A stretch of DNA of 64,000 nt, taken from Candidatus Doudnabacteria bacterium RIFCSPHIGHO2_02_FULL_42_25 (lineage in GTDB: Bacteria; Patescibacteriota; Doudnabacteria; UBA920; O2-02-FULL-48-8). This document shows positions 1,410-63,627 of this stretch, piece by piece. Location: positions 24,309 through 88,308 of the forward strand of contig MFEQ01000006.1 in the NCBI GenBank assembly GCA_001777665.1. Reading direction: 5' to 3'. The position numbers were made by a program, and so were the translations under genes. How positions within the stretch are numbered: position 1 is the stretch's first letter; the number at the start of each line of letters is the position of its first letter. The notes below the pieces were generated by a model. That model searched no databases. It saw nothing but the letters and a program-made list of their open reading frames with translations, and had not been told where the DNA came from.

Positions 1410-2525
1410 TCATTTTTCAACTACTCGCTGACGGGAAATATTCAGCAGTATCCCGACCGCTGCCAGACTGATAGCTAATGATGTCGAACCATAAGAAATA
1501 AAAATTAATGGAATTCCTGTCAAAGGAATGAGGGCGGTAATCCCTCCAATATTAATCACAGCCTGAATTATAATCCAAGCAGTAATTCCACCAGCAACTA
1601 ATTGACCAAACGTATCGGGTGCGGCTTTGGCAATTCTAAATCCTCGGTAAGCAATAAATAAATACAGAAATAGAATTAAACAAACTCTGATAAATCCCAG
1701 CTCTTCGGCAATAACTGCAAAAATCGAGTCACCTATAGTTTCTGGTAAATAGCTGTGTTTTTGTAATGATTGCCCAAATCCCTTCCCCCACCAGCCACCA
1801 CTCCCAATAGCCAATAATGCTTGATTGATTTGATAGGAAATTCCTTTGGCATCAACCGATGGATCCAAAAATGCTAAAAAGCGGTGCATTCGGTAAGGCG
1901 CGGCTTTGACCAGCAGCCAAAAAACTAAAAGGCCTGCACCAGCGGTGGCTGCTATATATCGAAGTCTCACGCCAGCAATAAAAAACATGACTGCCGAGAT
2001 CAGGGCCAAAACTAACATTGATCCGATATCAGGCTCCATAATAATTAATCCCGCCACAATCCCAGCAACGGCCAAGGTCGGTAAAAATCCATAGTACAAA
2101 TCATGAACATGGTGTTGTCGTTTATCATACCAACTTGCTAAATATAAAATAATGGCCAATTTTACAAATTCGGCTGGCTGAAAAAGAAATGCACCAAAGT
2201 TGATCCATCGTTTAGCTCCACCGACTTCAAAGCCGATACCCGGAATTAAAACTGCAATCAACATTCCTATCCCGGCTAGCACAAACAGCGGTGCAAATTT
2301 TTGTAAATTATGATAATCAAATTTAGAAAAAAAATATAAAAATATTAATCCGGGAATCGCGCCAAATAATAATTGCCGAACAAAGTAATAATAATTATTC
2401 TCAAACCTTTGATATGAAAGTACGCTCGAAGCCGAAAAAAGCATGATTAAACCAAAGCCCAGCATTATTAACACAGACCAAAATAAATATTTATCGACTG
2501 ATTGTTCAAAAGTTTGCTTTTTCAT
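1410..2525 (-). CDS. ftsW: SEDS-family peptidoglycan glycosyltransferase FtsW/RodA
   Basis: 371 aa polytopic membrane protein with FtsW/RodA-like sequence, adjacent to murD and mraY. Confidence 0.75.
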   Translation of the reverse strand: MKKQTFEQSVDKYLFWSVLIMLGFGLIMLFSASSVLSYQRFENNYYYFVRQLLFGAIPGLIFLYFFSKFDYHNLQKFAPLFVLAGIGMLIAVLIPGIGFEVGGAKRWINFGAFLFQPAEFVKLAIILYLASWYDKRQHHVHDLYYGFLPTLAVAGIVAGLIIMEPDIGSMLVLALISAVMFFIAGVRLRYIAATAGAGLLVFWLLVKAAPYRMHRFLAFLDPSVDAKGISYQINQALLAIGSGGWWGKGFGQSLQKHSYLPETIGDSIFAVIAEELGFIRVCLILFLYLFIAYRGFRIAKAAPDTFGQLVAGGITAWIIIQAVINIGGITALIPLTGIPLIFISYGSTSLAISLAAVGILLNISRQRVVEK

Positions 2526-2668
2526 CCCAGTATATCAACTTCGATAATGGTTTTTGAGTTCGCTTTTGCGAACAAAACCAGTTTAAATATATTATTTTCA
2601 AAAATCATCGAGTTAAAGTTAATTAATCAAAAACCATTGGGCAAAAGCATCGAAGTTGTATTACTGGG
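2526..2668 (+). repeat. 143-bp structured intercistronic element, copy 1. Exactly fills the gap between murD stop and ftsW ATG.
   Basis: About 97% identical to 52363-52505. Terminal inverted repeats cccagtatatcaacttcgat / atcgaagttgtattactggg. Internal palindromes gttcgcttttgcgaac and aatggtttttga/tcaaaaaccatt. Confidence 0.8.
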
Positions 2669-3970
2669 TCATAAACCATTAACCATCTTGATAAACTGCT
2701 CTCCGCGATCCTTATAATCTTTAAACATGTCGAAACTTGATGCTCCGGGAGAAAGTAAGACCAAATCCCCAGACACAGCCACGTTCTCTATTTGATCGAA
2801 AATTTCTTTCATATTCACAGCTCCCGTCAACAACTTGCCTTGAAACCCTTCTAACTGCTTGGTAATTTTTGACGCTTCCTCACCAATCACAATCACTGCC
2901 TTCACACTTGGAGATGTTTTTATGACGTTAGCTAAAACTTTGTACTGAAGTCCTTTGCTAGCACCTCCGACAATCAATATTTCTGATTGCGTAAAAGTTT
3001 TAATCGCCGCGATAGTGGATTCTTCATTCGTGCTGATTGAATCATCGACATATGTAATTCCATTTTTCACTGCAACGACGTTTAACCGGTGAGGTAACGG
3101 TTGAAATTCTGCCACAGATTTTCTTATCGATTCATCCGCAATTTTAAAAATTTTGGCGACTTCAATTGCGGCTGCAATATTGTCCCAATTGTGACTTCCT
3201 AAAAGCTTAGTCTGGTAATTTGATGCCGAATTTGGATCTATGAAAACCTTTTGACCTAATCCCAGTTTTTGGAACCATTCGGGAAGACTTTTATGAATTA
3301 CCGCGTAATCATCCTGCTTTTGATGAGCTATAATGTTCGACTTCGCTCGGAGGTACTCTTCCAAATTTTTATGATGATTTAAATGATCCGGTGAAATCGA
3401 TAACACAACCGCAATGTGCGGGGATTGTTCTAAATCTTGTAACTGAAAACTAGATAATTCTAAGACCACCAAGTCATCGGATTGAATTTGTTCAAGAAAT
3501 TCAAAAGGATCTTGGCCGATATTCCCAGCAACCCAAACCCGCCCGCCACGCAAGACAGCCCCGCCTGCAACGCGAGCTTGCGAGCGGGCAGGTTGCTGGC
3601 GTTGCGGGCTGGCTTTTTTACTACCGGTGGATAGCATTTCTGCAATCAAAACTGTTGTAGTCCCTTTTCCTTTCGTTCCGGTCACACCAATGATTGGAGC
3701 TGGACAAAGCTCAAAAAAAAGTTTCGTCTGACTGGAAATTTCGACTCCAGCTTCTTTCGCTTTCTGTATTGATTTTGACAGATACGGCAGTCCGGGTGTG
3801 CGAAAAATTATGTCGAACTTTGTCAGTTGATCGATTAGCTCGGCTTCCGATTTCCAATCATGGACAATCGTAAAACTAAGTTCGTTTTTGTTAAAAAAAT
3901 CGGCTAATTTTTGATTGTTGGTACCATAGCCGATGATGCCAATTTTTTTTCCTGTTAACTTCGAAAACAT
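2669..3970 (-). CDS. murD: UDP-N-acetylmuramoylalanine--D-glutamate ligase
   Basis: Mur ligase P-loop GVTGTKGKGTT; 433 aa. Carries an in-frame GC-rich insertion (about 3529-3616) encoding SPQRQQPARSQARVAGGAVLRGGRVW. Confidence 0.8.
   Translation of the reverse strand: MFSKLTGKKIGIIGYGTNNQKLADFFNKNELSFTIVHDWKSEAELIDQLTKFDIIFRTPGLPYLSKSIQKAKEAGVEISSQTKLFFELCPAPIIGVTGTKGKGTTTVLIAEMLSTGSKKASPQRQQPARSQARVAGGAVLRGGRVWVAGNIGQDPFEFLEQIQSDDLVVLELSSFQLQDLEQSPHIAVVLSISPDHLNHHKNLEEYLRAKSNIIAHQKQDDYAVIHKSLPEWFQKLGLGQKVFIDPNSASNYQTKLLGSHNWDNIAAAIEVAKIFKIADESIRKSVAEFQPLPHRLNVVAVKNGITYVDDSISTNEESTIAAIKTFTQSEILIVGGASKGLQYKVLANVIKTSPSVKAVIVIGEEASKITKQLEGFQGKLLTGAVNMKEIFDQIENVAVSGDLVLLSPGASSFDMFKDYKDRGEQFIKMVNGL
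3529..3616. repeat. GC-rich palindromic module inserted in-frame in murD (RPE-like)
   Basis: Starts aacccgcccgccacgcaag and ends gcgttgcgggctgg. The same termini occur in the module at 33857-33897. Local GC far above flanking coding sequence. Confidence 0.6.
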
Positions 3971-5526
3971 TATCGTTTTATAACCATGCCATTAAGGCCA
4001 ACGACTTCTTGGTTTGTATAAGATAATTTTCCGTTGACAATAACTCCATCGATCCCGACTGAAACCAAACTGGCATTTTTATAATCAGCTTTATCAGTTA
4101 TGGTTTTGGGGTCGAAAATTACCACATCAGCGAGTTTATCTTTGGCTAATTGTCCTAAGTTGGGAAGTCCAAGAAGTTTTGCTGGCTCTGAAGTAATTTT
4201 CATAATCGCTTGTTCCCATTTGAGCAGCTTATTTTCTCGAATCATTCGTAAAAATCTGGGCATGGTCCCGAAACATCGTGGGTGAATCAAATGTGGATGT
4301 TCTGTCGAGTGCCCAGCGCCATCAGTCGCGATCATAGACAGGGGGGATGCGCAGAGTAATTCTACGTGCTCATTTGATAGATTATGATCAAAAACCATAA
4401 CTTGAGCTCCACCAGCCAACAAAACATTCAACGTCGCTTCTTCAGCGCTGACTGATTGATTATCTCCAATTTGCTTCAAACTTTTCCCCACAAAGTTTGG
4501 GGCAGACGAAGCCTCCGAAACAATAACCTTATCAAAGTCATATTCTTGGGCTTTCAGATAATCCCAAATTTTTCGTCTGGTCACTGGATCACCGATCATT
4601 TTTAGAATCTGGTCGCGGCCACCTTCGTAAGTCCATTTCGGTAAATACGTATAAAGCACTGACCATGAAGTGTCATACGGATAGACATCAAATGAAATGT
4701 TAATACCTTGATGGTAAGCAATTTCTAACTTGGTCATCAGGCGTTCAAACAATGGCCAATTTTTCTTACCGCGAACTTTTAAATGGGAAATTTTTATAGG
4801 CACAGAAGCGATCAAGGCCAAATCTATAACTTCATCGAGGCTTTCCAGAATATGGGAATCTTCGGACCGCAAATGAACACTTAAATATTTCTGTTTTGGA
4901 TTAAGAACGGTAGCCAGTGTCCTTAACTCTTGTTCTGAAGAATTAACTTCGTGCGCGTAAACCAATCCCATAGACATTCCAAACGCTCCTTGATCGAGAG
5001 CATTTGTTAAAATGTTCTTCATTATTTTGATTTCGTCATCAGAAACCGGCCGGGTCGAATCACCCAAAATTCCTCGCCTGATCGTAGAGTGGCCTACTAA
5101 AGTTCCGACATTGACTCCATGCGGCACATTGCCGAGGTATTGCAAAAATTCTGCCATGGTCATCCAGTCAACATTCACCCCACTCAAATTATGCCACTTT
5201 TGTATAGACTTAATAGATTCTTTTGAAAGCAGTGGCGCTAATGATGCTCCGCAATTCCCCATGACGATGGTCGTGATTCCTTGCGAAAGCAAACTAAACT
5301 GACTAGGCTGATCCAAAATAGTCCAGTAAGAATCTGAGTGGTTTTGGATATCGATAAATCCTGGACTAACGATTCGATCACTGGCATCGATGGTTTGTAA
5401 AGACTTGGCTTTAATTACCGACTCAATCGCCGTGATTTTGCCATCCTGGATTGCAATATCAGCTTTATTTGCTGGTTTCCCCATCCCATCAATTACAGTC
5501 CCATTTTTTATGAGAATGTCGAGCAT
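3970..5526 (-). CDS. Amidohydrolase-superfamily enzyme, N-acyl-D-amino-acid deacylase (D-aminoacylase)-like
   Basis: 518 aa. N-terminus MLDILIKNGTVIDGMG...IVSPGFIDIQNHSD is typical of D-aminoacylase/amidohydrolase 3 family. Confidence 0.5.
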   Translation of the reverse strand: MLDILIKNGTVIDGMGKPANKADIAIQDGKITAIESVIKAKSLQTIDASDRIVSPGFIDIQNHSDSYWTILDQPSQFSLLSQGITTIVMGNCGASLAPLLSKESIKSIQKWHNLSGVNVDWMTMAEFLQYLGNVPHGVNVGTLVGHSTIRRGILGDSTRPVSDDEIKIMKNILTNALDQGAFGMSMGLVYAHEVNSSEQELRTLATVLNPKQKYLSVHLRSEDSHILESLDEVIDLALIASVPIKISHLKVRGKKNWPLFERLMTKLEIAYHQGINISFDVYPYDTSWSVLYTYLPKWTYEGGRDQILKMIGDPVTRRKIWDYLKAQEYDFDKVIVSEASSAPNFVGKSLKQIGDNQSVSAEEATLNVLLAGGAQVMVFDHNLSNEHVELLCASPLSMIATDGAGHSTEHPHLIHPRCFGTMPRFLRMIRENKLLKWEQAIMKITSEPAKLLGLPNLGQLAKDKLADVVIFDPKTITDKADYKNASLVSVGIDGVIVNGKLSYTNQEVVGLNGMVIKR

Positions 5527-6572
5527 TATCGTCCTATCAAGTTAACTGCAACTCCTACGATTGCGAACACCACGGAGACTACCCAGAGTCGCATCGTGAC
5601 TTTTGTTTCTGGCCAGCCCTTAGCTTCGAAATGGTGATGTAGTGGTGAAGATAAAAATAATTTTCGACCTGTCGTGTGGCGCCACGTCCACTGCAAAAGA
5701 GTGGATATGGATTCCAAAACTAAAACAAATCCGATCAAAGGTAGAACAATGACGGAATTAGTCAAAAACGCAATTACTGCCAGTACTGTCCCGAGTGACA
5801 TCGAACCCGTATCACCCATAAAAAACCTGGCTGGGAAAATGTTAAACCACAGAAATGCTAACAAAGCGCCACCAATGACTCCAGCCAGTGCGGCTAACTC
5901 GAAACGTCCTTGTAAAAATGCGATCAATCCGTACGACAAAAAAGCGACAGCTAAGACTCCACCTGCCAATCCATCTAACCCGTCAGTTTGGTTAACTGAA
6001 AAACTCGTTGCAATCACGACAAAAATAAACAATGGCACAATCCAGGCACCAATCACTAAATCACCAACTCCTGGAATATGTAAAATATCGAATTGAAGTT
6101 TATAGTAAAACCAGTAAGCCCCGATGATGGCAATCAGCGTATAAAACAGTAATCGGTGACGCATTCGGAGTCCCCCGCCCTTCCCACCTCCCGCTCCTTT
6201 TATTCCCAAATAATCATCTAGGAGTCCCAGAACCGCAGCCGCACCTAATACTCCCAAAGGCAGTAAGGTTTGCTGCCTCGTCAAAAAATTCAGTTTGTGA
6301 AATAGTTCAAAACCTAAAACTCGATCCAAAAACCAAAAAATTGCAGCCAGAGCTAGCGTTGTAAACCAAATCAAAACACCGCCCATGGTTGGCGTGCCAT
6401 TTTTCTTCTCGTGAAGCTTGGTATAAAACGGAGTGTCGCCTTCGGCTCGAATTTTTTTCCCAAATTTGTGTTTGTAGACAAAATTAGTAAAAATTGGCGT
6501 CAAACTGATCGCCACCGCGAAGCTAATTGCAGCAAGTGAAAATATTTTTATTAAAGCGTCCGCCGATGTCAT
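5526..6572 (-). CDS. mraY: Phospho-N-acetylmuramoyl-pentapeptide transferase
   Basis: MraY motifs (DDYLGIKG..., MGDTGSMSLG); 348 aa. Confidence 0.85.
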   Translation of the reverse strand: MTSADALIKIFSLAAISFAVAISLTPIFTNFVYKHKFGKKIRAEGDTPFYTKLHEKKNGTPTMGGVLIWFTTLALAAIFWFLDRVLGFELFHKLNFLTRQQTLLPLGVLGAAAVLGLLDDYLGIKGAGGGKGGGLRMRHRLLFYTLIAIIGAYWFYYKLQFDILHIPGVGDLVIGAWIVPLFIFVVIATSFSVNQTDGLDGLAGGVLAVAFLSYGLIAFLQGRFELAALAGVIGGALLAFLWFNIFPARFFMGDTGSMSLGTVLAVIAFLTNSVIVLPLIGFVLVLESISTLLQWTWRHTTGRKLFLSSPLHHHFEAKGWPETKVTMRLWVVSVVFAIVGVAVNLIGR

Positions 6573-12877: not shown

Positions 12878-12909
12878 TTACCTAGTTGCCCATATGGGCA
12901 ACTAGGTAA
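12878..12909. repeat. Perfect 32-bp palindrome ttACCTAGTTGCCCATATGGGCAACTAGGTaa (CATATG-core palindrome family, copy 1)
   Basis: Identical 28-bp core at 49787-49814 and 63554-63581. Variants at 43124-43157 and 62962-62989. Confidence 0.9.
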
Positions 12910-12959: not shown

Positions 12960-14444
12960 CTAGTTCTCTACTTCCCCGCCCATAATTTTGAGGGCGGACT
13001 CCACTAACTCATCTTTTTGCTCCACTTGAGCCTCACCTTTTTGTAACGTAGGTTTTACCATCAGTTTCAGTCCCGTCACTTCTTCGATTACTTGATCGAC
13101 AACGATTCGATTCTTACGCGCTTCGATCGCATCTTTATGAAATTTATATGGAAATATCACTACCAGTTCTTTTCCTTCTATAGAAATAGGCTGAGCTAGT
13201 TTTAAACTCGAGATAAGCGAGTGGTTATATTCTTTTAGTTTTTCCAGAATCTGCGGCCAGTGAGCTTGGACTTTGGCAAATAACTCCCCCTCGCCCTCTC
13301 TTACATTAAGAGGGGGTTCCTCTGCTGCTTCATCCCCCCTTAATATAAGGGGGGATTGAGGGGGGTTATTCTCCTCGGTCGCCTCTACTGCGGCTAATTC
13401 AAGTGGCAGACTCTGGATCGATGACCATTTGATTTCACCTTCAGCTTTCTGGAATATCTGAATGATCTGCATAATTCTTGGCAATTCCAAAGCTTGGGCT
13501 TGATCCTTCATCTTCTGTGAAATTTCTTCGGTATAACCAAAATCAGAAGTTGTCCCCACTTTCGTCAACAATATTTTTCGCAAATACTCTAAAAAATCTT
13601 TTTCAAATTGATATAAATCTTTGCCCCCATAAGTCAGATCTGAAATAAAACTCACCGCTTCTTGGGTTTGATTTTCTACGAGCAGATCTAGGAATTTACT
13701 CAAAGTCTTCACGCCTGTTAAACCGAGGACTGTTTCGACTAATTCTTCAGTAATCTCGCCTTCGGCGTAATTCATAACTTGATCGAGTAGTGATAGCCCA
13801 TCTCGAAAACTGCCATCCGCAGCAGTCGCGATTTCCATCAGGGCTCCTTCACTAACTTTGATCTGATTATCGGAAGCCACATATGCGAGATGCTTGCTTA
13901 AATCTGCAATGCCGACTTTTTTAAAATCAAATCGTTGCGTCCGCGAAATAATCGTGGCTGGAACTTTATGAATTTCGGTCGTGGCCAAAATAAATACGGC
14001 ATGACTCGGTGGTTCTTCCAAAGTCTTAAGTAATGCATTAAAAGCGCCTTTTGAAAGCATGTGCACTTCATCGACAATAATCACTTTATATGTGGCCTTA
14101 GTTGGGGCAAATTGCAAATGATCGATCAATTCTCGAATATTATCCACGCCAGTGTGCGACGCCGCATCTATTTCCAGCAAATCTAAACTGGTATTCTCTA
14201 GAAATGGTTTACAGATCTCGCATTCGTTGCAGGGTTCCGAGCCTGTTCTATTCTGACAATTAATAGCCCGCGCAAAAATCCGAGCTAGCGTCGTTTTCCC
14301 GACCCCTCTGGGTCCGGTGAATAAATAAGCGTGGCCCACGCGATTATTGGCGACCGCATTGGCGAGCGTGGTTTTGATGTGTTCCTGATTGACCACGGAA
14401 CCGAAATTCAGTGGCCGATATTTTCTATACAATACTAAGTTCAT
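12960..14444 (-). CDS. dnaX: DNA polymerase III subunit gamma/tau
   Basis: Walker A GPRGVGKTT, clamp-loader motifs. Contains an in-frame GC-rich insertion (about 13290-13375) encoding EENNPPQSPLILRGDEAAEEPPLNVREGEGE. Confidence 0.85.
   Translation of the reverse strand: MNLVLYRKYRPLNFGSVVNQEHIKTTLANAVANNRVGHAYLFTGPRGVGKTTLARIFARAINCQNRTGSEPCNECEICKPFLENTSLDLLEIDAASHTGVDNIRELIDHLQFAPTKATYKVIIVDEVHMLSKGAFNALLKTLEEPPSHAVFILATTEIHKVPATIISRTQRFDFKKVGIADLSKHLAYVASDNQIKVSEGALMEIATAADGSFRDGLSLLDQVMNYAEGEITEELVETVLGLTGVKTLSKFLDLLVENQTQEAVSFISDLTYGGKDLYQFEKDFLEYLRKILLTKVGTTSDFGYTEEISQKMKDQAQALELPRIMQIIQIFQKAEGEIKWSSIQSLPLELAAVEATEENNPPQSPLILRGDEAAEEPPLNVREGEGELFAKVQAHWPQILEKLKEYNHSLISSLKLAQPISIEGKELVVIFPYKFHKDAIEARKNRIVVDQVIEEVTGLKLMVKPTLQKGEAQVEQKDELVESALKIMGGEVEN
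13334..13374. repeat. Copy of the ccccttaatataagggg-ggttag-gaggggttat element embedded in-frame in dnaX
   Basis: ccccccttaatataaggggggattgaggggggttattctcc. Compare 60616-60669 and 21040-21085 (reverse orientation). Confidence 0.65.
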
Positions 14445-16537: not shown

Positions 16538-16638
16538 TTTAACCATTTCGAGGGCCGGTCAATTGACCGGTTAGCGAGAAATCGATTTTCCGAGAGTGAC
16601 TCCTCTTAGGAGGGATCTCTCACTTCGTTCGAGATGGG
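16538..16638 (+). repeat. Structured repeat family ccatttcga...GGAGGGATCTCTCACTTCGTTCGAGATGG, copy A
   Basis: Shares aaccatttcga, an internal GC hairpin (ggccggtcaattgaccgg), gagaaatcg and a 29-nt 3' block with copies at 19844-19919 and 27001-27082. 5' ccatttcga pairs with 3' tcgagatgg (one G-U pair). Confidence 0.7.
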
Positions 16639-19843: not shown

Positions 19844-19919
19844 TAACCATTTCGACCCCGGACTTGATCCGGGGGAGAAATCGCTCTTGGGAGGGATCTC
19901 TCTCTTCGTTCGAGATGGG
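19844..19919 (+). repeat. ccatttcga...GGAGGGATCTCTCTCTTCGTTCGAGATGG element, copy B
   Basis: ttttaaccatttcga + hairpin ccccggacttgatccgggg + gagaaatcg + gggagggatctctctcttcgttcgagatggg. Confidence 0.7.
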
Positions 19920-21017: not shown

Positions 21018-21039
21018 CTGCAGTCTAAGGCTTAGGATA

Positions 21040-21085
21040 TAACCCCTCCTAACCTCCCCTTATATTAAGGGGAGGAACAACTGCA
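21040..21085 (-). repeat. gcagttgttcctccccttaatataaggggaggttaggaggggttat element (reverse orientation) in the 5' leader of paralog 2
   Basis: Reverse complement is about 95% identical over about 46 nt to 60616-60669. Confidence 0.75.
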
Positions 21086-21656: not shown

Positions 21657-22589
21657 ATGAGCCTGAAAATAATTCATACCAAAAATTTACGTTGGATCGA
21701 CATCGTCGGACCTGAAGACAGCGATCTCACCTATCTCAAAGAACACTTCAAATTTCACCCGCTTGATTTTGAAGATATCATCACGCCATCGATCCGGACA
21801 AAAATCGACGAATATCCGGCCTACCATTTCATCGTTTTGCTTTTTCCATACTATAGTAAAGAAAACAATGAAATCCGTTCAGTGGAGGTTGATTTTTTGA
21901 TCGGTCCGGATTATGTGATCACTATTCACAATGGCAAAATGAAAACTCTGAACAACCTGGTACACAACGCGCAGCAGTACGACCAGACCCGGAATGCGAT
22001 GATGATGCAAGGATCAGGATTTTTGCTGTTTACTATTTTGGAAGCATTGTTCAAAAGAAGCTCTCCGATTCTGGACCACATCAATCGAGAAGTCCTAAGT
22101 GCCGAGAAAAATGTGTTCCAACTTGACATCAAAACTTTGGAAAAATTATCTGAACTTAAAAAAAACATCATCATCTACCGCCGTATCGTAAAAATGCACC
22201 GTTATGTTTTAAACAAAATTCTGCACTCTTCAAATGACTATCTGAAATTCAAAGACCACAAAACTTATTTTCAGGATTTGATCGAATACGGAGAAAACAT
22301 TTGGAACGTGCTGTCTTCTGACAAAGAAAGTGTGGAGAGCTTCGAAGAAACCAACCAATCTCTAGGCACGCATCGTATCAATGATATTTTGCAAGTCTTA
22401 ACAGTCCTCTCTGTTGTTTTAGCAGCACTAAATTTGATTACAAATATTTTGGTATTTATGGAACGAACCAACATCGAAGAAAACTACGGTCTGTCGAACG
22501 ATTTATACTTAATCAGCTTCATCACTGGCTTCATGTTTGTTGTTACCATAACCATGCTTTATTACTTCCGTAAACGCCGCTGGTTGTAA
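21657..22589 (+). CDS. corA: CorA-family Mg2+/Co2+ transporter
   Basis: Two C-terminal TM helices; typical CorA N-terminal WIDI..P motif. Start moved to ATG 21657 (MSLKIIHT). Confidence 0.65.
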   Translation: MSLKIIHTKNLRWIDIVGPEDSDLTYLKEHFKFHPLDFEDIITPSIRTKIDEYPAYHFIVLLFPYYSKENNEIRSVEVDFLIGPDYVITIHNGKMKTLNNLVHNAQQYDQTRNAMMMQGSGFLLFTILEALFKRSSPILDHINREVLSAEKNVFQLDIKTLEKLSELKKNIIIYRRIVKMHRYVLNKILHSSNDYLKFKDHKTYFQDLIEYGENIWNVLSSDKESVESFEETNQSLGTHRINDILQVLTVLSVVLAALNLITNILVFMERTNIEENYGLSNDLYLISFITGFMFVVTITMLYYFRKRRWL

Positions 22590-22600
22590 AATTAGTTATT

Positions 22601-22628
22601 TGCTACCATACTTGGTAGTATGGTAGCA
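22601..22628. promoter_or_regulatory. Palindromic operator-like site TGCTACCATACT-tggt-AGTATGGTAGCA upstream of the TrpR-like gene
   Basis: Perfect 12-bp inverted arms, 4-bp spacer, about 29 nt upstream of ATG 22657. Second degenerate copy at 23186-23213 upstream of cysS. Confidence 0.5.
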
Positions 22629-22656
22629 TTTTGCTCAAGTATTAAAAGCTAAACAA

Positions 22657-23175
22657 ATGTCAAAGTTTCCACGAGTTTTAACTAAAAAAGAACAAGAAGA
22701 ACTCTTTATAGAATTTGCGCAAGCCCTCGCGAGTTTGCATTCGGCTGTAGAAATGGCAAATTTTATCAAAGATCTATTATCGGAACCAGAAACAATGATG
22801 TTGGCACGAAGATTGCAAATAGCAAAATTGCTCTATAAAGGTTTGAATTACCGAGAGATAAAAGAAGAGTTGAAGGTCAGTTTCGGCACAATTGCTAGAG
22901 TTCAGACTTGGATGCAAATATACGGGGAGGGCTATCGGACAGTTCTTGAACGAGTCAGCCGAAAAAAATATGACCCTACAAAAGATGTCTCTGACTGGAA
23001 AAAGGTTAAGCGCCGATATCCTTTATACTTTTGGCCGGAATTACTATTAGATGAGATAATAAAATCATCGAATAAAAAACAAAAGCAAAAACTTTTGGCT
23101 GTATTGGCAAAGCAAAAAGAAAAAACCGGTTTAAGTAAAGAGTTGGAACATATTCTCAAAAGCGCTCAACTCTAA
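22657..23175 (+). CDS. TrpR-like YerC/YecD-family HTH protein
   Basis: LSEPETMMLARRLQIAKLL..GLNYREIKEELKVSFGTIARV matches TrpR/YerC HTH. Confidence 0.5.
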   Translation: MSKFPRVLTKKEQEELFIEFAQALASLHSAVEMANFIKDLLSEPETMMLARRLQIAKLLYKGLNYREIKEELKVSFGTIARVQTWMQIYGEGYRTVLERVSRKKYDPTKDVSDWKKVKRRYPLYFWPELLLDEIIKSSNKKQKQKLLAVLAKQKEKTGLSKELEHILKSAQL

Positions 23176-23185
23176 TTTAGCAATT

Positions 23186-23213
23186 TGCTACCATACTTGG
23201 TAGTATGAGAGCA
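23186..23213. promoter_or_regulatory. Second (degenerate) copy of the TGCTACCATACT palindrome, upstream of cysS
   Basis: tgctaccatacttggtagtatgagagca; two mismatches in the right arm. Confidence 0.4.
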
Positions 23214-23269
23214 TTTAGCTAGTTCATCGAATTAATTAAAATTTATTTAAAATTTGTTATAATAGAGCA

Positions 23270-26401: not shown

Positions 26402-26508
26402 CGCTCGGAATAAAATTTTTATGCACCGGCCATAAAATTCTGCTGAATTTTTGGCCTACGCGCTCGGTCCGTCGACCTGCGCGAGTTGCTAAAAATTTAT
26501 TCCTCGCT
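26402..26508 (+). ncRNA. Candidate structured RNA (about 105 nt), copy 1 of a two-copy family with compensatory changes
   Basis: Conserved core accggccRtaaaattctgctgaattttYggcctacgcgctcggtccgtcgacctgcgcgagtt. Closing stems differ between copies but are each self-complementary. A/G and T/C substitutions maintain a base pair in the ggccRtaaaattc hairpin. Confidence 0.45.
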
Positions 26509-26518
26509 CAAGGTTTAA

Positions 26519-27000: not shown

Positions 27001-27082
27001 TACCACTTCGAACGATTAGTGAGAAGTCGCTCCTACAAGGGTTAGCGCTTGGAGGAGGGATCTCTCACTTCGTTCGAGATGG
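27001..27082 (+). repeat. ccacttcga...GGAGGAGGGATCTCTCACTTCGTTCGAGATGG element, copy C
   Basis: Shares 5' accaYttcga, gagaaRtcg and the 29-nt 3' block with copies A and B. Confidence 0.65.
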
Positions 27083-27139
27083 TAAAACGCTTTCGCTGGG
27101 ATGGTAAAAAAAGTCATGATTTAGTAGAATATGTAGGCT

Positions 27140-56370: not shown

Positions 56371-56960
56371 ATTCTTTTTACAGCTTCAATGAACATTTTG
56401 TTAGTATCGTCAGATACAATTATGAGCCCTCGCACTATTCTTCTGTATGCAGGATCATCGGATTGGCCTCTTCCTCTCGTTATATGATCGAAGCCTCCTA
56501 CTGCAGTCACTAAAATCCAAGGATTGTGCTCTTCCACATCAGGTAATTCATGCCGGTGCTCATTGAAATCCCGACGGTATTCATCTAACCGTAACTGCAG
56601 TAATTTATCCCAATCGATCAAGAATTTCTCCTCAATCCCGAAAGATTTTAAAATTTCTTTGTATGCAGTGAGAATTCCATTTTTTACTTCTTTCAAATAC
56701 TCCCTAAAAAAATCTTCGTGAAAATTAATCAGTGTTTCAGTTTGAAAATAGACTAAACAGAGCGCCGTGACTACTAATTCATTAAAGATCCGATCTTGTT
56801 CAGTTTGGGATAACGAGTCAAAATTAATTTCGCTTCTAAAATCTATATTTCGAAATAAGTCAAAAGCTGACTTTATTGCCTTCATAGTAATGGCCACAGT
56901 ATCTTTTGCCGAATTTGGAGGACCGTAAACAAGTTTTCTGAACATAAAATAGAGTCTCAC
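56367..56960 (-). CDS. Hypothetical protein (197 aa) with possible HEPN-like Rx4H motif (RRDFNEH)
   Basis: ORF. The motif call is weak pattern-matching only. Confidence 0.3.
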   Translation of the reverse strand: MRLYFMFRKLVYGPPNSAKDTVAITMKAIKSAFDLFRNIDFRSEINFDSLSQTEQDRIFNELVVTALCLVYFQTETLINFHEDFFREYLKEVKNGILTAYKEILKSFGIEEKFLIDWDKLLQLRLDEYRRDFNEHRHELPDVEEHNPWILVTAVGGFDHITRGRGQSDDPAYRRIVRGLIIVSDDTNKMFIEAVKRI

Positions 56961-56965
56961 TACGC

Positions 56966-57514
56966 CTAATTGTGCGATCGTGTATTTTGCGTAGAATCAA
57001 ACAGCATTCTGCCTTCTAGGATATTAACATTTAATTCTACTTGTAATTCTTTTAATAGCTCTTTAAATTCTGGTAGTAGCTCCCAAGGTCCGATAAAAAC
57101 ACTCTTTTGCAACATCATAAAGCCGTTTTGAATTAAAAATCGTCTTAAAAATTGTCTGGCTTTTTTCTTTTCTTCGGGGATATCAAACATAACTAGAGTT
57201 GAAAATCCGTTATTCTTTGCCCTTCTCAACTTTCTTGAGTATATATATTTCAAACTCCTTGCCCGCCCTAAATTCGTTATCTGATAGTATGTTTTTCTTT
57301 CTTTTTTGATTTTTTTTACTAAGCCATCTCTGTCTAGTTCCCAAAAAGCTCTGGAAATTTTATAGCGATCATAATATTTAAGCCTTTTGATATATTGATA
57401 CTTGCCTTCAAAAGGATAAGGAATCAGCTCCCCCATATCGCGCAAAAACCAAAGCAATTCTCCAGTAATTGTCTTTAGACGCTTCTTGATTTTTCTTTTG
57501 GTAGTACGTTTCAT
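56966..57514 (-). CDS. wHTH + Cas2-like (VapD/Cas2 fold) protein, paralog A
   Basis: C-terminal half LVMFDIPEEKKKARQFLRRFLIQNGFMMLQKSVFIGPWE matches the Cas2 signature (V.YD.s....R..l...L...G.r.Q.SVF). Basic N-terminal domain. Paralog at 62995-63546. Confidence 0.4.
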   Translation of the reverse strand: MKRTTKRKIKKRLKTITGELLWFLRDMGELIPYPFEGKYQYIKRLKYYDRYKISRAFWELDRDGLVKKIKKERKTYYQITNLGRARSLKYIYSRKLRRAKNNGFSTLVMFDIPEEKKKARQFLRRFLIQNGFMMLQKSVFIGPWELLPEFKELLKELQVELNVNILEGRMLFDSTQNTRSHN

Positions 57515-57549
57515 ACGTATTTTACGCGATCGCGCATTTTACGTATTAT
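57514..57549 (+). repeat. 36-bp direct repeat (right copy) tacgtattttacGCGATCGCgcattttacgtattat
   Basis: See 56335-56370. Confidence 0.8.
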
Positions 57550-57556
57550 AGCAAAT

Positions 57557-60615: not shown

Positions 60616-60669
60616 GCAGTTGTTCCTCCCCTTAATATAAGGGGAGGTTAGGAGGGGTTATTCATAAGG
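60616..60669 (+). repeat. gcagttgttcctccccttaatataaggggaggttaggaggggttattc element in the 5' leader of the BNR-repeat gene
   Basis: See 21040-21085 and 13334-13374. Confidence 0.75.
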
Positions 60670-62961: not shown

Positions 62962-62989
62962 TACCTAGTTGGCCATATGGGCATTTAGG
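62962..62989. repeat. Degenerate copy of the CATATG-core palindrome (acctagttgGccatatgggcaTTtaggt)
   Basis: Three substitutions relative to the perfect copies. Lies between the GC island and the Cas2-like gene. Confidence 0.7.
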
Positions 62990-62994
62990 TAAAG

Positions 62995-63546: not shown

Positions 63547-63553
63547 ATTCTAT

Positions 63554-63581
63554 ACCTAGTTGCCCATATGGGCAACTAGGT
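63554..63581. repeat. Perfect 28-bp palindrome ACCTAGTTGCCCATATGGGCAACTAGGT (copy 3), 8 nt upstream of the Cas2-like gene start
   Basis: Identical to copies 1 and 2. Confidence 0.9.
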
Positions 63582-63627
63582 TACGGGTGTACCCAGTTGT
63601 TCACTTATTAAAAAGACTTGTTCTTAA

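Follow-up and report, generated by a model that had tools for sequence, protein, structure and literature searches.

The window analysed here, a 64,000-nucleotide stretch of a Candidatus Doudnabacteria contig, carries two nearly identical elements of 143 nt, each of which fills the gap between two genes of a cell-wall operon. Copy A separates murD from ftsW, while copy B separates mreC from a gene in the position of mreD (Table 1). The neighbours of the two copies include mreB, mraY and genes for PBP2 and an amidohydrolase. Copy A is located in a minus-strand cluster (window 1410-6572) with the gene order mraY, a gene for a 518-aa amidohydrolase-family protein, murD, ftsW, a DUF4012 protein gene and murJ. 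The order of this mraY-to-murJ cluster is that found in relatives (L158), with adjacent genes overlapping by 1-4 nt, and gene overlaps of this length are common in these genomes. The two copies are identical at 140/143 positions (97.9%), with all three mismatches internal (element nt 84, 97 and 101), and a 33-nt probe has exactly two matches in the window, one in each copy, where none is expected in shuffled sequences. On the minus strand, on which the genes are encoded, the 5′ edge of both copies directly abuts the stop codon of the upstream gene and the 3′ edge directly abuts the ATG of the downstream gene. Two copies with about 97% identity and an exact stop-to-start placement had been reported in the first-pass annotation, and both observations are upheld here.

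Each copy is bounded by terminal inverted repeats of 20 nt, which are complementary at 17/20 positions. A fixed 3x3 mismatch occupies the three central positions and defines the polarity of the element. We use sense (S) orientation for the strand that would be read as the RNA 5′-CCCAGUAAUAC...GAUAUACUGGG-3′; in the window this corresponds to the minus strand. The pairing of this outer stem is extended inward by a second stem of 12 bp (AATGGTTTTTGA / TCAAAAACCATT), and the whole element constitutes one long imperfect palindrome with a fold of about -45 kcal/mol (z of about -7 against shuffled sequences) on either strand. While the inverted repeats of about 20 bp in the first-pass annotation are thus recovered, only one of its two internal hairpins is clear. 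The open reading frames that extend over the window copies are antisense only and overlap real genes. A scan with the Rfam 15 covariance models at the gathering score returned a tRNA as the sole match in the window and none in the element, and in E-value mode the element matched only miRNA and snoRNA models at chance level (E > 0.1), such that the proposed Rfam/Infernal check yields no matching family.

Table 1. Coordinates in the window of the two element copies, their parts, the duplicated target sequences and the flanking genes
Feature	Position	Strand	Remarks
murD	2669-3970	-	Pfam
ftsW	1410-2525	-	Pfam
mreC	52506-53306	-	Pfam
mreD-position ORF, 176 aa	51832-52362	-	Assigned by position; no Pfam match
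Copy A	2526-2668	-	143 nt, gap between murD and ftsW; S orientation on the minus strand; nhmmer 109.8 against the family profile
Copy B	52363-52505	-	143 nt, gap between mreC and mreD-position ORF; orientation to the genes as in copy A; nhmmer 109.4
Terminal inverted repeat	2526-2545		Plus strand CCCAGTATATCAACTTCGAT; near-invariant in the family; pairs with 2649-2668 except for the central mismatch; copy B equivalent 52363-52382
Terminal inverted repeat	2649-2668		Plus strand ATCGAAGTTGTATTACTGGG; copy B equivalent 52486-52505
Inner stem P2, left arm AATGGTTTTTGA	2546-2557		Pairs with ~2627-2638; from folds
Inner stem P2 in copy B	52383-52394		Pairs with ~52464-52475
Internal hairpin GTTCGC-TTTT-GCGAAC	2558-2573		Contains conserved GCTTTTGC; copy B equivalent 52395-52410
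GCAAAAGC, complement of GCTTTTGC	2641-2648		Copy B equivalent 52478-52485
Upstream duplicate, copy A	2669-2672	-	ATGA; TGA is the murD stop, ATG the vestigial former ftsW start
Downstream duplicate, copy A	2522-2525	-	ATGA; ATG is the present ftsW start
Upstream duplicate, copy B	52506-52509	-	ATAA, degenerate; TAA is the mreC stop, vestigial ATG gone
Downstream duplicate, copy B	52359-52362	-	ATGA; ATG starts the mreD-position gene

Additional repeats can be observed in the window. A perfect palindrome of 31 nt, TACCTAGTTGCCCATATGGGCAACTAGGTwA, occurs four times (12879-12909, 49786-49816, 62962-62992 and 63553-63583), apparently always in intergenic positions as judged from ORF coordinates, and may constitute a further family of small repeats or a hairpin with a shared role as terminator or operator. 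Two inverted copies of a GC-rich element of ~100 nt (26405-26510 and 55690-55795; 97% identical, 29 kb apart) are apparently intergenic and bear no sequence relationship to the 143-nt element. The repeat CCCCTTAATATAAGGGGrGgTTrGGAGGGGTTAT is found in three copies (13336-13371, 60616-60663 and, in reverse, 21039-21084), with one pair 100% complementary across 46 nt. Further repeats are TACGTATTTTAyGCGATCGCGCATTTTACGTATTATA (56335-56371 and 57514-57550), a palindrome around GCTACCATACTTGGTAGTATGGTAGC (22589-22635 and 23174-23220) and GGAGGGATCTCTCaCTTCGTTCGAGATGG (16603-16638, 19884-19919 and 27048-27083).

Both copies of the 143-nt element are flanked by a short direct duplication, reading TCAT-element-TCAT on the plus strand at copy A and TCAT-element-TTAT at copy B. 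At copy A, the vestigial ATG now opens a mini-ORF, AUG-ACC-CAG-UAA. For copy B, we infer that the upstream ATAA derives from ATGA by a G-to-A change, by which the stop codon would have been kept and the vestigial ATG destroyed. The junction between murD and ftsW is empty in three relatives, whose FtsW proteins are 85, 80 and 73% identical to that of the window and in which the two genes overlap at a single ATGA, and a fourth contig likewise has a murD/ftsW overlap of 4 nt by gene coordinates. Similarly, the junction between mreC and mreD is empty in relatives, with the genes overlapping at ATGA in two and the third reading TAAtATG; the sequence in L163 and L165 is ...ccaATGAgaaat, with no element. 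An identical FtsW protein was found in two assemblies, both of which carry the element. Since a 4-bp duplication of an ATGA overlap leaves ...TGA before the element and ATG... after it, the exact stop-to-start fit is accounted for, and both flanking genes survive because the duplicated ATGA restores the TGA on one side and the ATG on the other. The first-pass annotation had argued that such exact placement in two envelope operons points to a mobile or functional intercistronic RNA element; a dedicated function is not supported by the placement, which follows from the 4-bp duplication at ATGA overlaps. Given their near-identity against the background of a diverse family, the window copies are taken as products of recent transposition in this lineage.

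The extent of this family was determined by a scan for the exact 20-nt end CCCAGTAWWWCAACTTCGAT across genomes representing each prokaryotic species once, which returned 46 stretches, most of them with a pair of inverted matches spaced by 100-150 nt, while a metagenome scan with the same 20-mer returned at least 111 stretches. In the genome and metagenome matches listed, the distance between inverted ends is 100-165 nt and in no case reaches kilobases. A profile search (nhmmer) of all the retrieved DNA identified 90 non-redundant full copies of 105-183 nt, corresponding to 83 independent sites after the merging of orthologous and near-identical sites. As the copies were selected for one perfect 20-nt end, their counts represent a sample, and the conservation of the ends is overstated because the collection demanded such an end. 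By record title, the hosts include Candidatus Doudnabacteria, Saccharibacteria, Wolfebacteria, Azambacteria and unclassified Patescibacteria. The element was found in about 15 species-level genomes, with six to seven exact-end copies in single Doudnabacteria MAGs (MFEJ01 and MFER01). Three matches in Micrarchaeota and Methylococcaceae MAGs were discarded, being lone 20-mers within coding sequence with no second end; by arithmetic, ~9 chance 20-mer matches are expected in 596 Gb, and as these three fit the chance level, the family is not shown to extend outside the Patescibacteria. A MAG labelled Methylomirabilota (DATJFX01 contigs; L039, L041 and L043) harbors the element together with an FtsW protein sharing 74% identity with that of Doudnabacteria (P0051). 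These contigs, which carry Doudnabacteria-like genes, are probably mis-binned or misclassified. No relatives of the element were found in viral contigs or in phage and plasmid collections. The element is thus present at many other loci and absent from the same junctions in relatives, which are the two outcomes that the first-pass annotation had itself named as speaking against its reading.

Both ends of the 90 copies consist of 20 nt, CCCAGTA(TAT/ATA)CAACTTCGAT, and are almost invariant, while the interior ranges from similar to unrelated across the family. The Doudnabacteria-type subfamily retains the motifs GCTTTTGC and GCAAAAGC, and its stems stay paired (89.6% of cells), with double changes at 15 pairs, while the inner stem P2 shows double changes at 9/12 of its pairs. 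Matching compensatory changes are also found in both terminal repeats of two copies, namely L002:1784-1928 (CAACGACGAT/ATCGTCGTTG) and L013:3352-3476 (CCCGG...CAACCTCGAT/ATCGAGGTTG...CCGGG), showing that the terminal arms co-evolve even in otherwise invariant ends. The compensatory stem changes could equally be compatible with a constraint on the RNA. A further subfamily with symmetric ends, CCCAGTATTACAAC.../...GTTGTAATACTGGG (L001, L020, L105 and L151; Wolfebacteria titles among others), lacks the 3-nt asymmetry and still adjoins start codons. The element has no coding capacity, as the reading frames that enter from the flanks all meet stop codons. Tandem or nested copies are observed at three loci (L144:4094-4243; L115:266-438 and 569-751; L113:1515-1655 and 2210-2352), where the common duplicate is TCAA/TTGA, an arrangement which suggests repeated insertion into a regenerated TTGA target and, as such, a real target preference. 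A solo right end of 24 nt at L021:4816-4839 directly abuts CATG, with the same site present in L118 and L122, and looks like the remnant of a deletion or an imprecise excision.

The duplicated target is 4 bp long in 63/90 copies, 3 bp in 14/90 and 5 bp in 2/90, and comprises more than 20 different tetranucleotides, mostly ATGA, TATG and TTGA. At 38 of the 83 independent sites (46%) a start codon is located 0-1 nt past the S 3′ end of the element, in a single orientation, with the start codon contained in the duplication (ATGA, TATG, CATG or TGTG). Start codons adjoin the element in the nominally opposite orientation at 4/83 sites, at three of which the orientation is not definable because the ends are symmetric, while the fourth is doubtful. 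The resulting split of 38 to 1 has, by arithmetic, a binomial probability of ~1e-10. Seventeen further sites (20%) coincide with the first four bases of a TTGACA-like -35 hexamer, with a TAnnnT -10 box 16-18 bp downstream as in ordinary sigma-70-type promoters, and here the two orientations are represented 9 to 8. The remaining sites comprise TTGA without a clear -10 box (3/83) and other contexts (21/83). As the orientation rule holds at start codons and not upstream of promoters, it argues that selection acts on the strand that is transcribed and against a bias inherent in the insertion itself. At ~21/39 of the start-codon sites a -10-like TANNNT hexamer is located 5-9 nt upstream of the left duplicate, compared to ~1 per position elsewhere; this spacing suggests that the genes concerned are leaderless, with a predicted transcription start coinciding with the ATG. 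A Shine-Dalgarno sequence is present at four start-codon sites, and the remainder include operon junctions such as those in the window. Ten genes directly behind the element were identified by Pfam as encoding DnaA, SecF, GAPDH, RuvA, MurD, an FtsW/RodA-family protein, MscL, TsaE, transketolase and an ABC ATPase, several of which we take to be essential, as they are in model bacteria. The diversity of these downstream genes rules out a specificity for envelope genes.

The element is small and non-coding, has terminal inverted repeats, is flanked by a duplication of fixed length and variable sequence, and is found in dispersed copies with precise empty sites, as is expected of a MITE. We consider it very probable that it is a non-autonomous DNA transposon of this type, belonging to a family spread in the Patescibacteria, and that the window copies were inserted into ATGA overlaps. 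The MITE family is apparently previously undescribed and spans several lineages of the Candidate Phyla Radiation (CPR); in the library searched for MITEs in CPR bacteria and for MITEs at start codons, nothing describing this element and no paper dealing with MITEs in CPR bacteria was found. The element would be moved by a transposase making 4-bp staggered cuts, most likely of the DDE type, supplied in trans. A preference of this enzyme for WTGA and TATG tetranucleotides would fit the repeated use of regenerated sites. Insertion would split an ATGA stop/start overlap such that the duplication leaves TGA before and ATG after the element, which would then be co-transcribed as an intercistronic hairpin. 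In compact genomes, selection would keep only those insertions whose duplication rebuilds a start codon, a stop/start overlap or the edge of a -35 box, and the survival of a single orientation at start codons would indicate that the transcribed strand matters there. A search for an autonomous copy, with ends (up to five mismatches) 250-6000 bp apart enclosing an ORF, was negative across ~1 Mb of 8-kb blocks around the matches and the window, where ends at such distances represent only chance pairs or nested small copies. As no transposase-bearing copy is present in these retrieved loci, mobilisation by a DDE enzyme is deduced from the anatomy of the element only. Among the three roles put forward in the first-pass annotation, namely a processing site, a translational coupler or a MITE, the last is favoured by the inverted ends, 4-bp duplications, ~90 copies and empty sites, while a role at the RNA level is hinted at by the orientation at start codons.

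A purely parasitic MITE would not typically show such a near-absolute orientation or sit so exactly on -35 boxes, and both features may indicate a function or special targeting. One form of the former is an exapted MITE, mobile and with a selected RNA-level role directly before the start codon, for instance through an RNase III cut in the long stem that generates an mRNA with a short leader, a stabilising 5′ hairpin, or a tiny upstream ORF ending at the foot of the hairpin, with re-initiation resembling a ribosome shunt at the AUG that the stem places beside it. We regard this as possible but on balance doubtful. The orientation bias of 38 to 1 at start codons, against 9 to 8 at -35 boxes outside the transcript, speaks in its favour, as does the presence of dnaA, secF, gap and ruvA behind the element, given that an AUG directly 3′ of a hairpin of ~60 bp and without a Shine-Dalgarno sequence must still work in these genes. 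About half of the start-codon sites follow a -10-like TANNNT, where insertion would provide a once leaderless mRNA with the element as its 5′ leader. The asymmetry of the ends generates, in the sense strand only, a UAA at element nt 6-8, such that the vestigial ATGA encodes M-T-Q-stop, and all upstream ORFs terminate within the element; in the ATGA class an in-frame UGA lies 9 nt before the AUG of the gene, and a short hairpin or GCUUUUGC directly follows the 5′ end. RNase III cleavage would have a precedent in the inverted repeats of Correia elements (PMC10969869; PMC2649163). On the other hand, the left vestigial start has decayed at window copy B, L150, L023, L060 and L040, so an upstream ORF is not required everywhere, and in the TATG class this ORF comprises 11-41 codons rather than three. 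Upstream-ORF read-through was rejected as the cause of the orientation rule, since in simulations it is nearly equal in both orientations. The same junctions in relatives lack the element, which is therefore not needed there, and a search for promoters and terminators in the element found no promoter-like site on the sense strand and no terminator. An outward promoter by way of TGATATACT at the sense 3′ end was also rejected, as it is 3-4 nt from the AUG and thus too close for a usable transcription start, and so was an N-terminal extension by in-frame read-through, as 0/38 upstream frames pass the element and all stop. Simple tolerance of the element is a further candidate beside RNase III processing and re-initiation across the base of the hairpin. 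The more specific proposal that the MITE lands or stays at the first bases of expression signals, namely of -35 boxes and of start codons that often double as leaderless transcription starts, and that its fixed orientation at start codons denotes a working RNA module, in the form of a processed or shunt-like 5′ hairpin, is advanced more tentatively still.

Special targeting would require a transposase that is drawn to promoters bound by RNA polymerase, namely to the -35 box at its upstream edge and to the melted start, in the manner in which Ty3 integrates at the start sites of Pol III. The 17 sites that coincide with the opening tetranucleotide of a TTGACA-like hexamer followed at 16-18 bp by a -10 box, and the ~21/39 start-codon sites located 5-9 nt past a -10-like hexamer, at the predicted +1, are consistent with this proposal. 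However, no promoter is near the window copies or several others, which occupy operon-internal stop/start overlaps or follow a Shine-Dalgarno sequence, the orientation at -35 sites is random, and a WTGA/TATG preference combined with selection covers the same data with fewer assumptions, so that we consider targeting of this kind improbable. The location of both window copies within envelope operons, and the copies in other genomes that precede murD and an FtsW/RodA-family gene, could be cited for an intercistronic RNA that is dedicated to regulation or processing in cell-envelope operons and conserved for this function. Yet the same junctions are empty in three to four relatives, most copies adjoin unrelated genes (dnaA, secF, gap, ruvA, mscL, tsaE and transketolase genes among them), no Rfam family matches, and target duplications and insertion in both orientations upstream of promoters are hallmarks of a transposon; we therefore give this reading very little credence. 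Just as implausible is a palindrome of the REP/RAYT type or derived from IS200/IS605, which a Y1 transposase would mobilise in single-stranded form, even though the strong hairpin potential of both strands, the short subterminal hairpin by one end and the marked orientation bias would suit it. Such elements are not known to duplicate their target and insert beside one fixed tetra- or pentanucleotide, whereas the full-length inverted ends of the present family are bordered by exact 4-bp duplications that vary widely in sequence, and membership was rejected on these grounds.

Several known systems resemble the element in part. The Correia elements (CREE/NEMIS) of Neisseria are likewise MITEs, of ~100-155 bp, with inverted-repeat ends, which are dispersed by genes and co-transcribed as hairpins. 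They duplicate TA and have end sequences unrelated to those of the CPR element. Correia elements can also create promoters at their ends, whereas the CPR element shows no sense promoter and further differs in its 4-bp duplication, its Patescibacteria host and its location exactly on start codons in one orientation. RNase III cuts the stems of Correia RNAs, and the expression of neighbouring genes is altered by these elements (PMC2649163; PMC10969869). The ERIC/IRU elements of enterobacteria are comparable as imperfect palindromes of ~127 bp in transcribed intergenic regions, while a duplication in which the start codon is embedded has not been described for them, unlike the CPR element. ERIC elements have an effect which is orientation-dependent, and differ from the CPR element in their TA target, sequence and host range. 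In Yersinia, an RNase E site is unmasked by ERIC insertions, which thereby affect transcript levels (PMC10969869). Membership of the Correia or ERIC families was rejected, as the duplication is of 4 bp (mostly ATGA, TATG and TTGA) and not TA, and as the behaviour of the element differs. The Rickettsia palindromic elements (RPE) are small mobile palindromes that are tolerated in extremely compact genomes, where their insertion preserves genes (PMC10969869). These properties are shared with the CPR element, but RPE insert in frame within ORFs and are translated, while the CPR element is located between genes and all the frames entering it stop. RPE membership was accordingly rejected (0/38 upstream frames read through; copies intergenic).

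With regard to a parent element, the CC(C)...(G)GG termini and the 4-5-bp duplication presumably recall DDE transposons of the IS1380/piggyBac type, which we take as a lead to the parent only. The target of piggyBac is TTAA, while the CPR element uses ATGA, TATG and TTGA. IS1380 and piggyBac elements encode a DDE transposase, whereas none was found with the ends of the CPR element in the retrieved loci. A parallel in architecture is the short-ORF-dependent ribosome shunt on the 35S RNA of cauliflower mosaic virus, where a long hairpin separates the main AUG, immediately past it, from a very short ORF that terminates at its base. This shunt is eukaryotic and cap-dependent, and the similarity in architecture applies only to the ATGA class of the element at leaderless promoters. 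We have not seen a description of the insertion pattern as such, with the start codon in the duplication, a single orientation and placement on the -35 edge.

Target duplication thus has the perfect stop-to-start fit in both cell-wall operons as a by-product, and a tempting false lead is removed. A MITE family common to several CPR lineages is documented here in what seems to be the first such case; the mobile elements of these bacteria are poorly known and their genomes extremely compact. If the tentative proposal of a working RNA module were true, the element would represent a mobile and portable leader for essential genes, on which an AUG is translated without a Shine-Dalgarno sequence. Furthermore, if the insertion pattern exceeds what selection explains, the family would provide a natural experiment on translation start on leaderless and hairpin-led mRNAs in uncultured bacteria, and the insertion map would also serve as a handle for finding the transposase.
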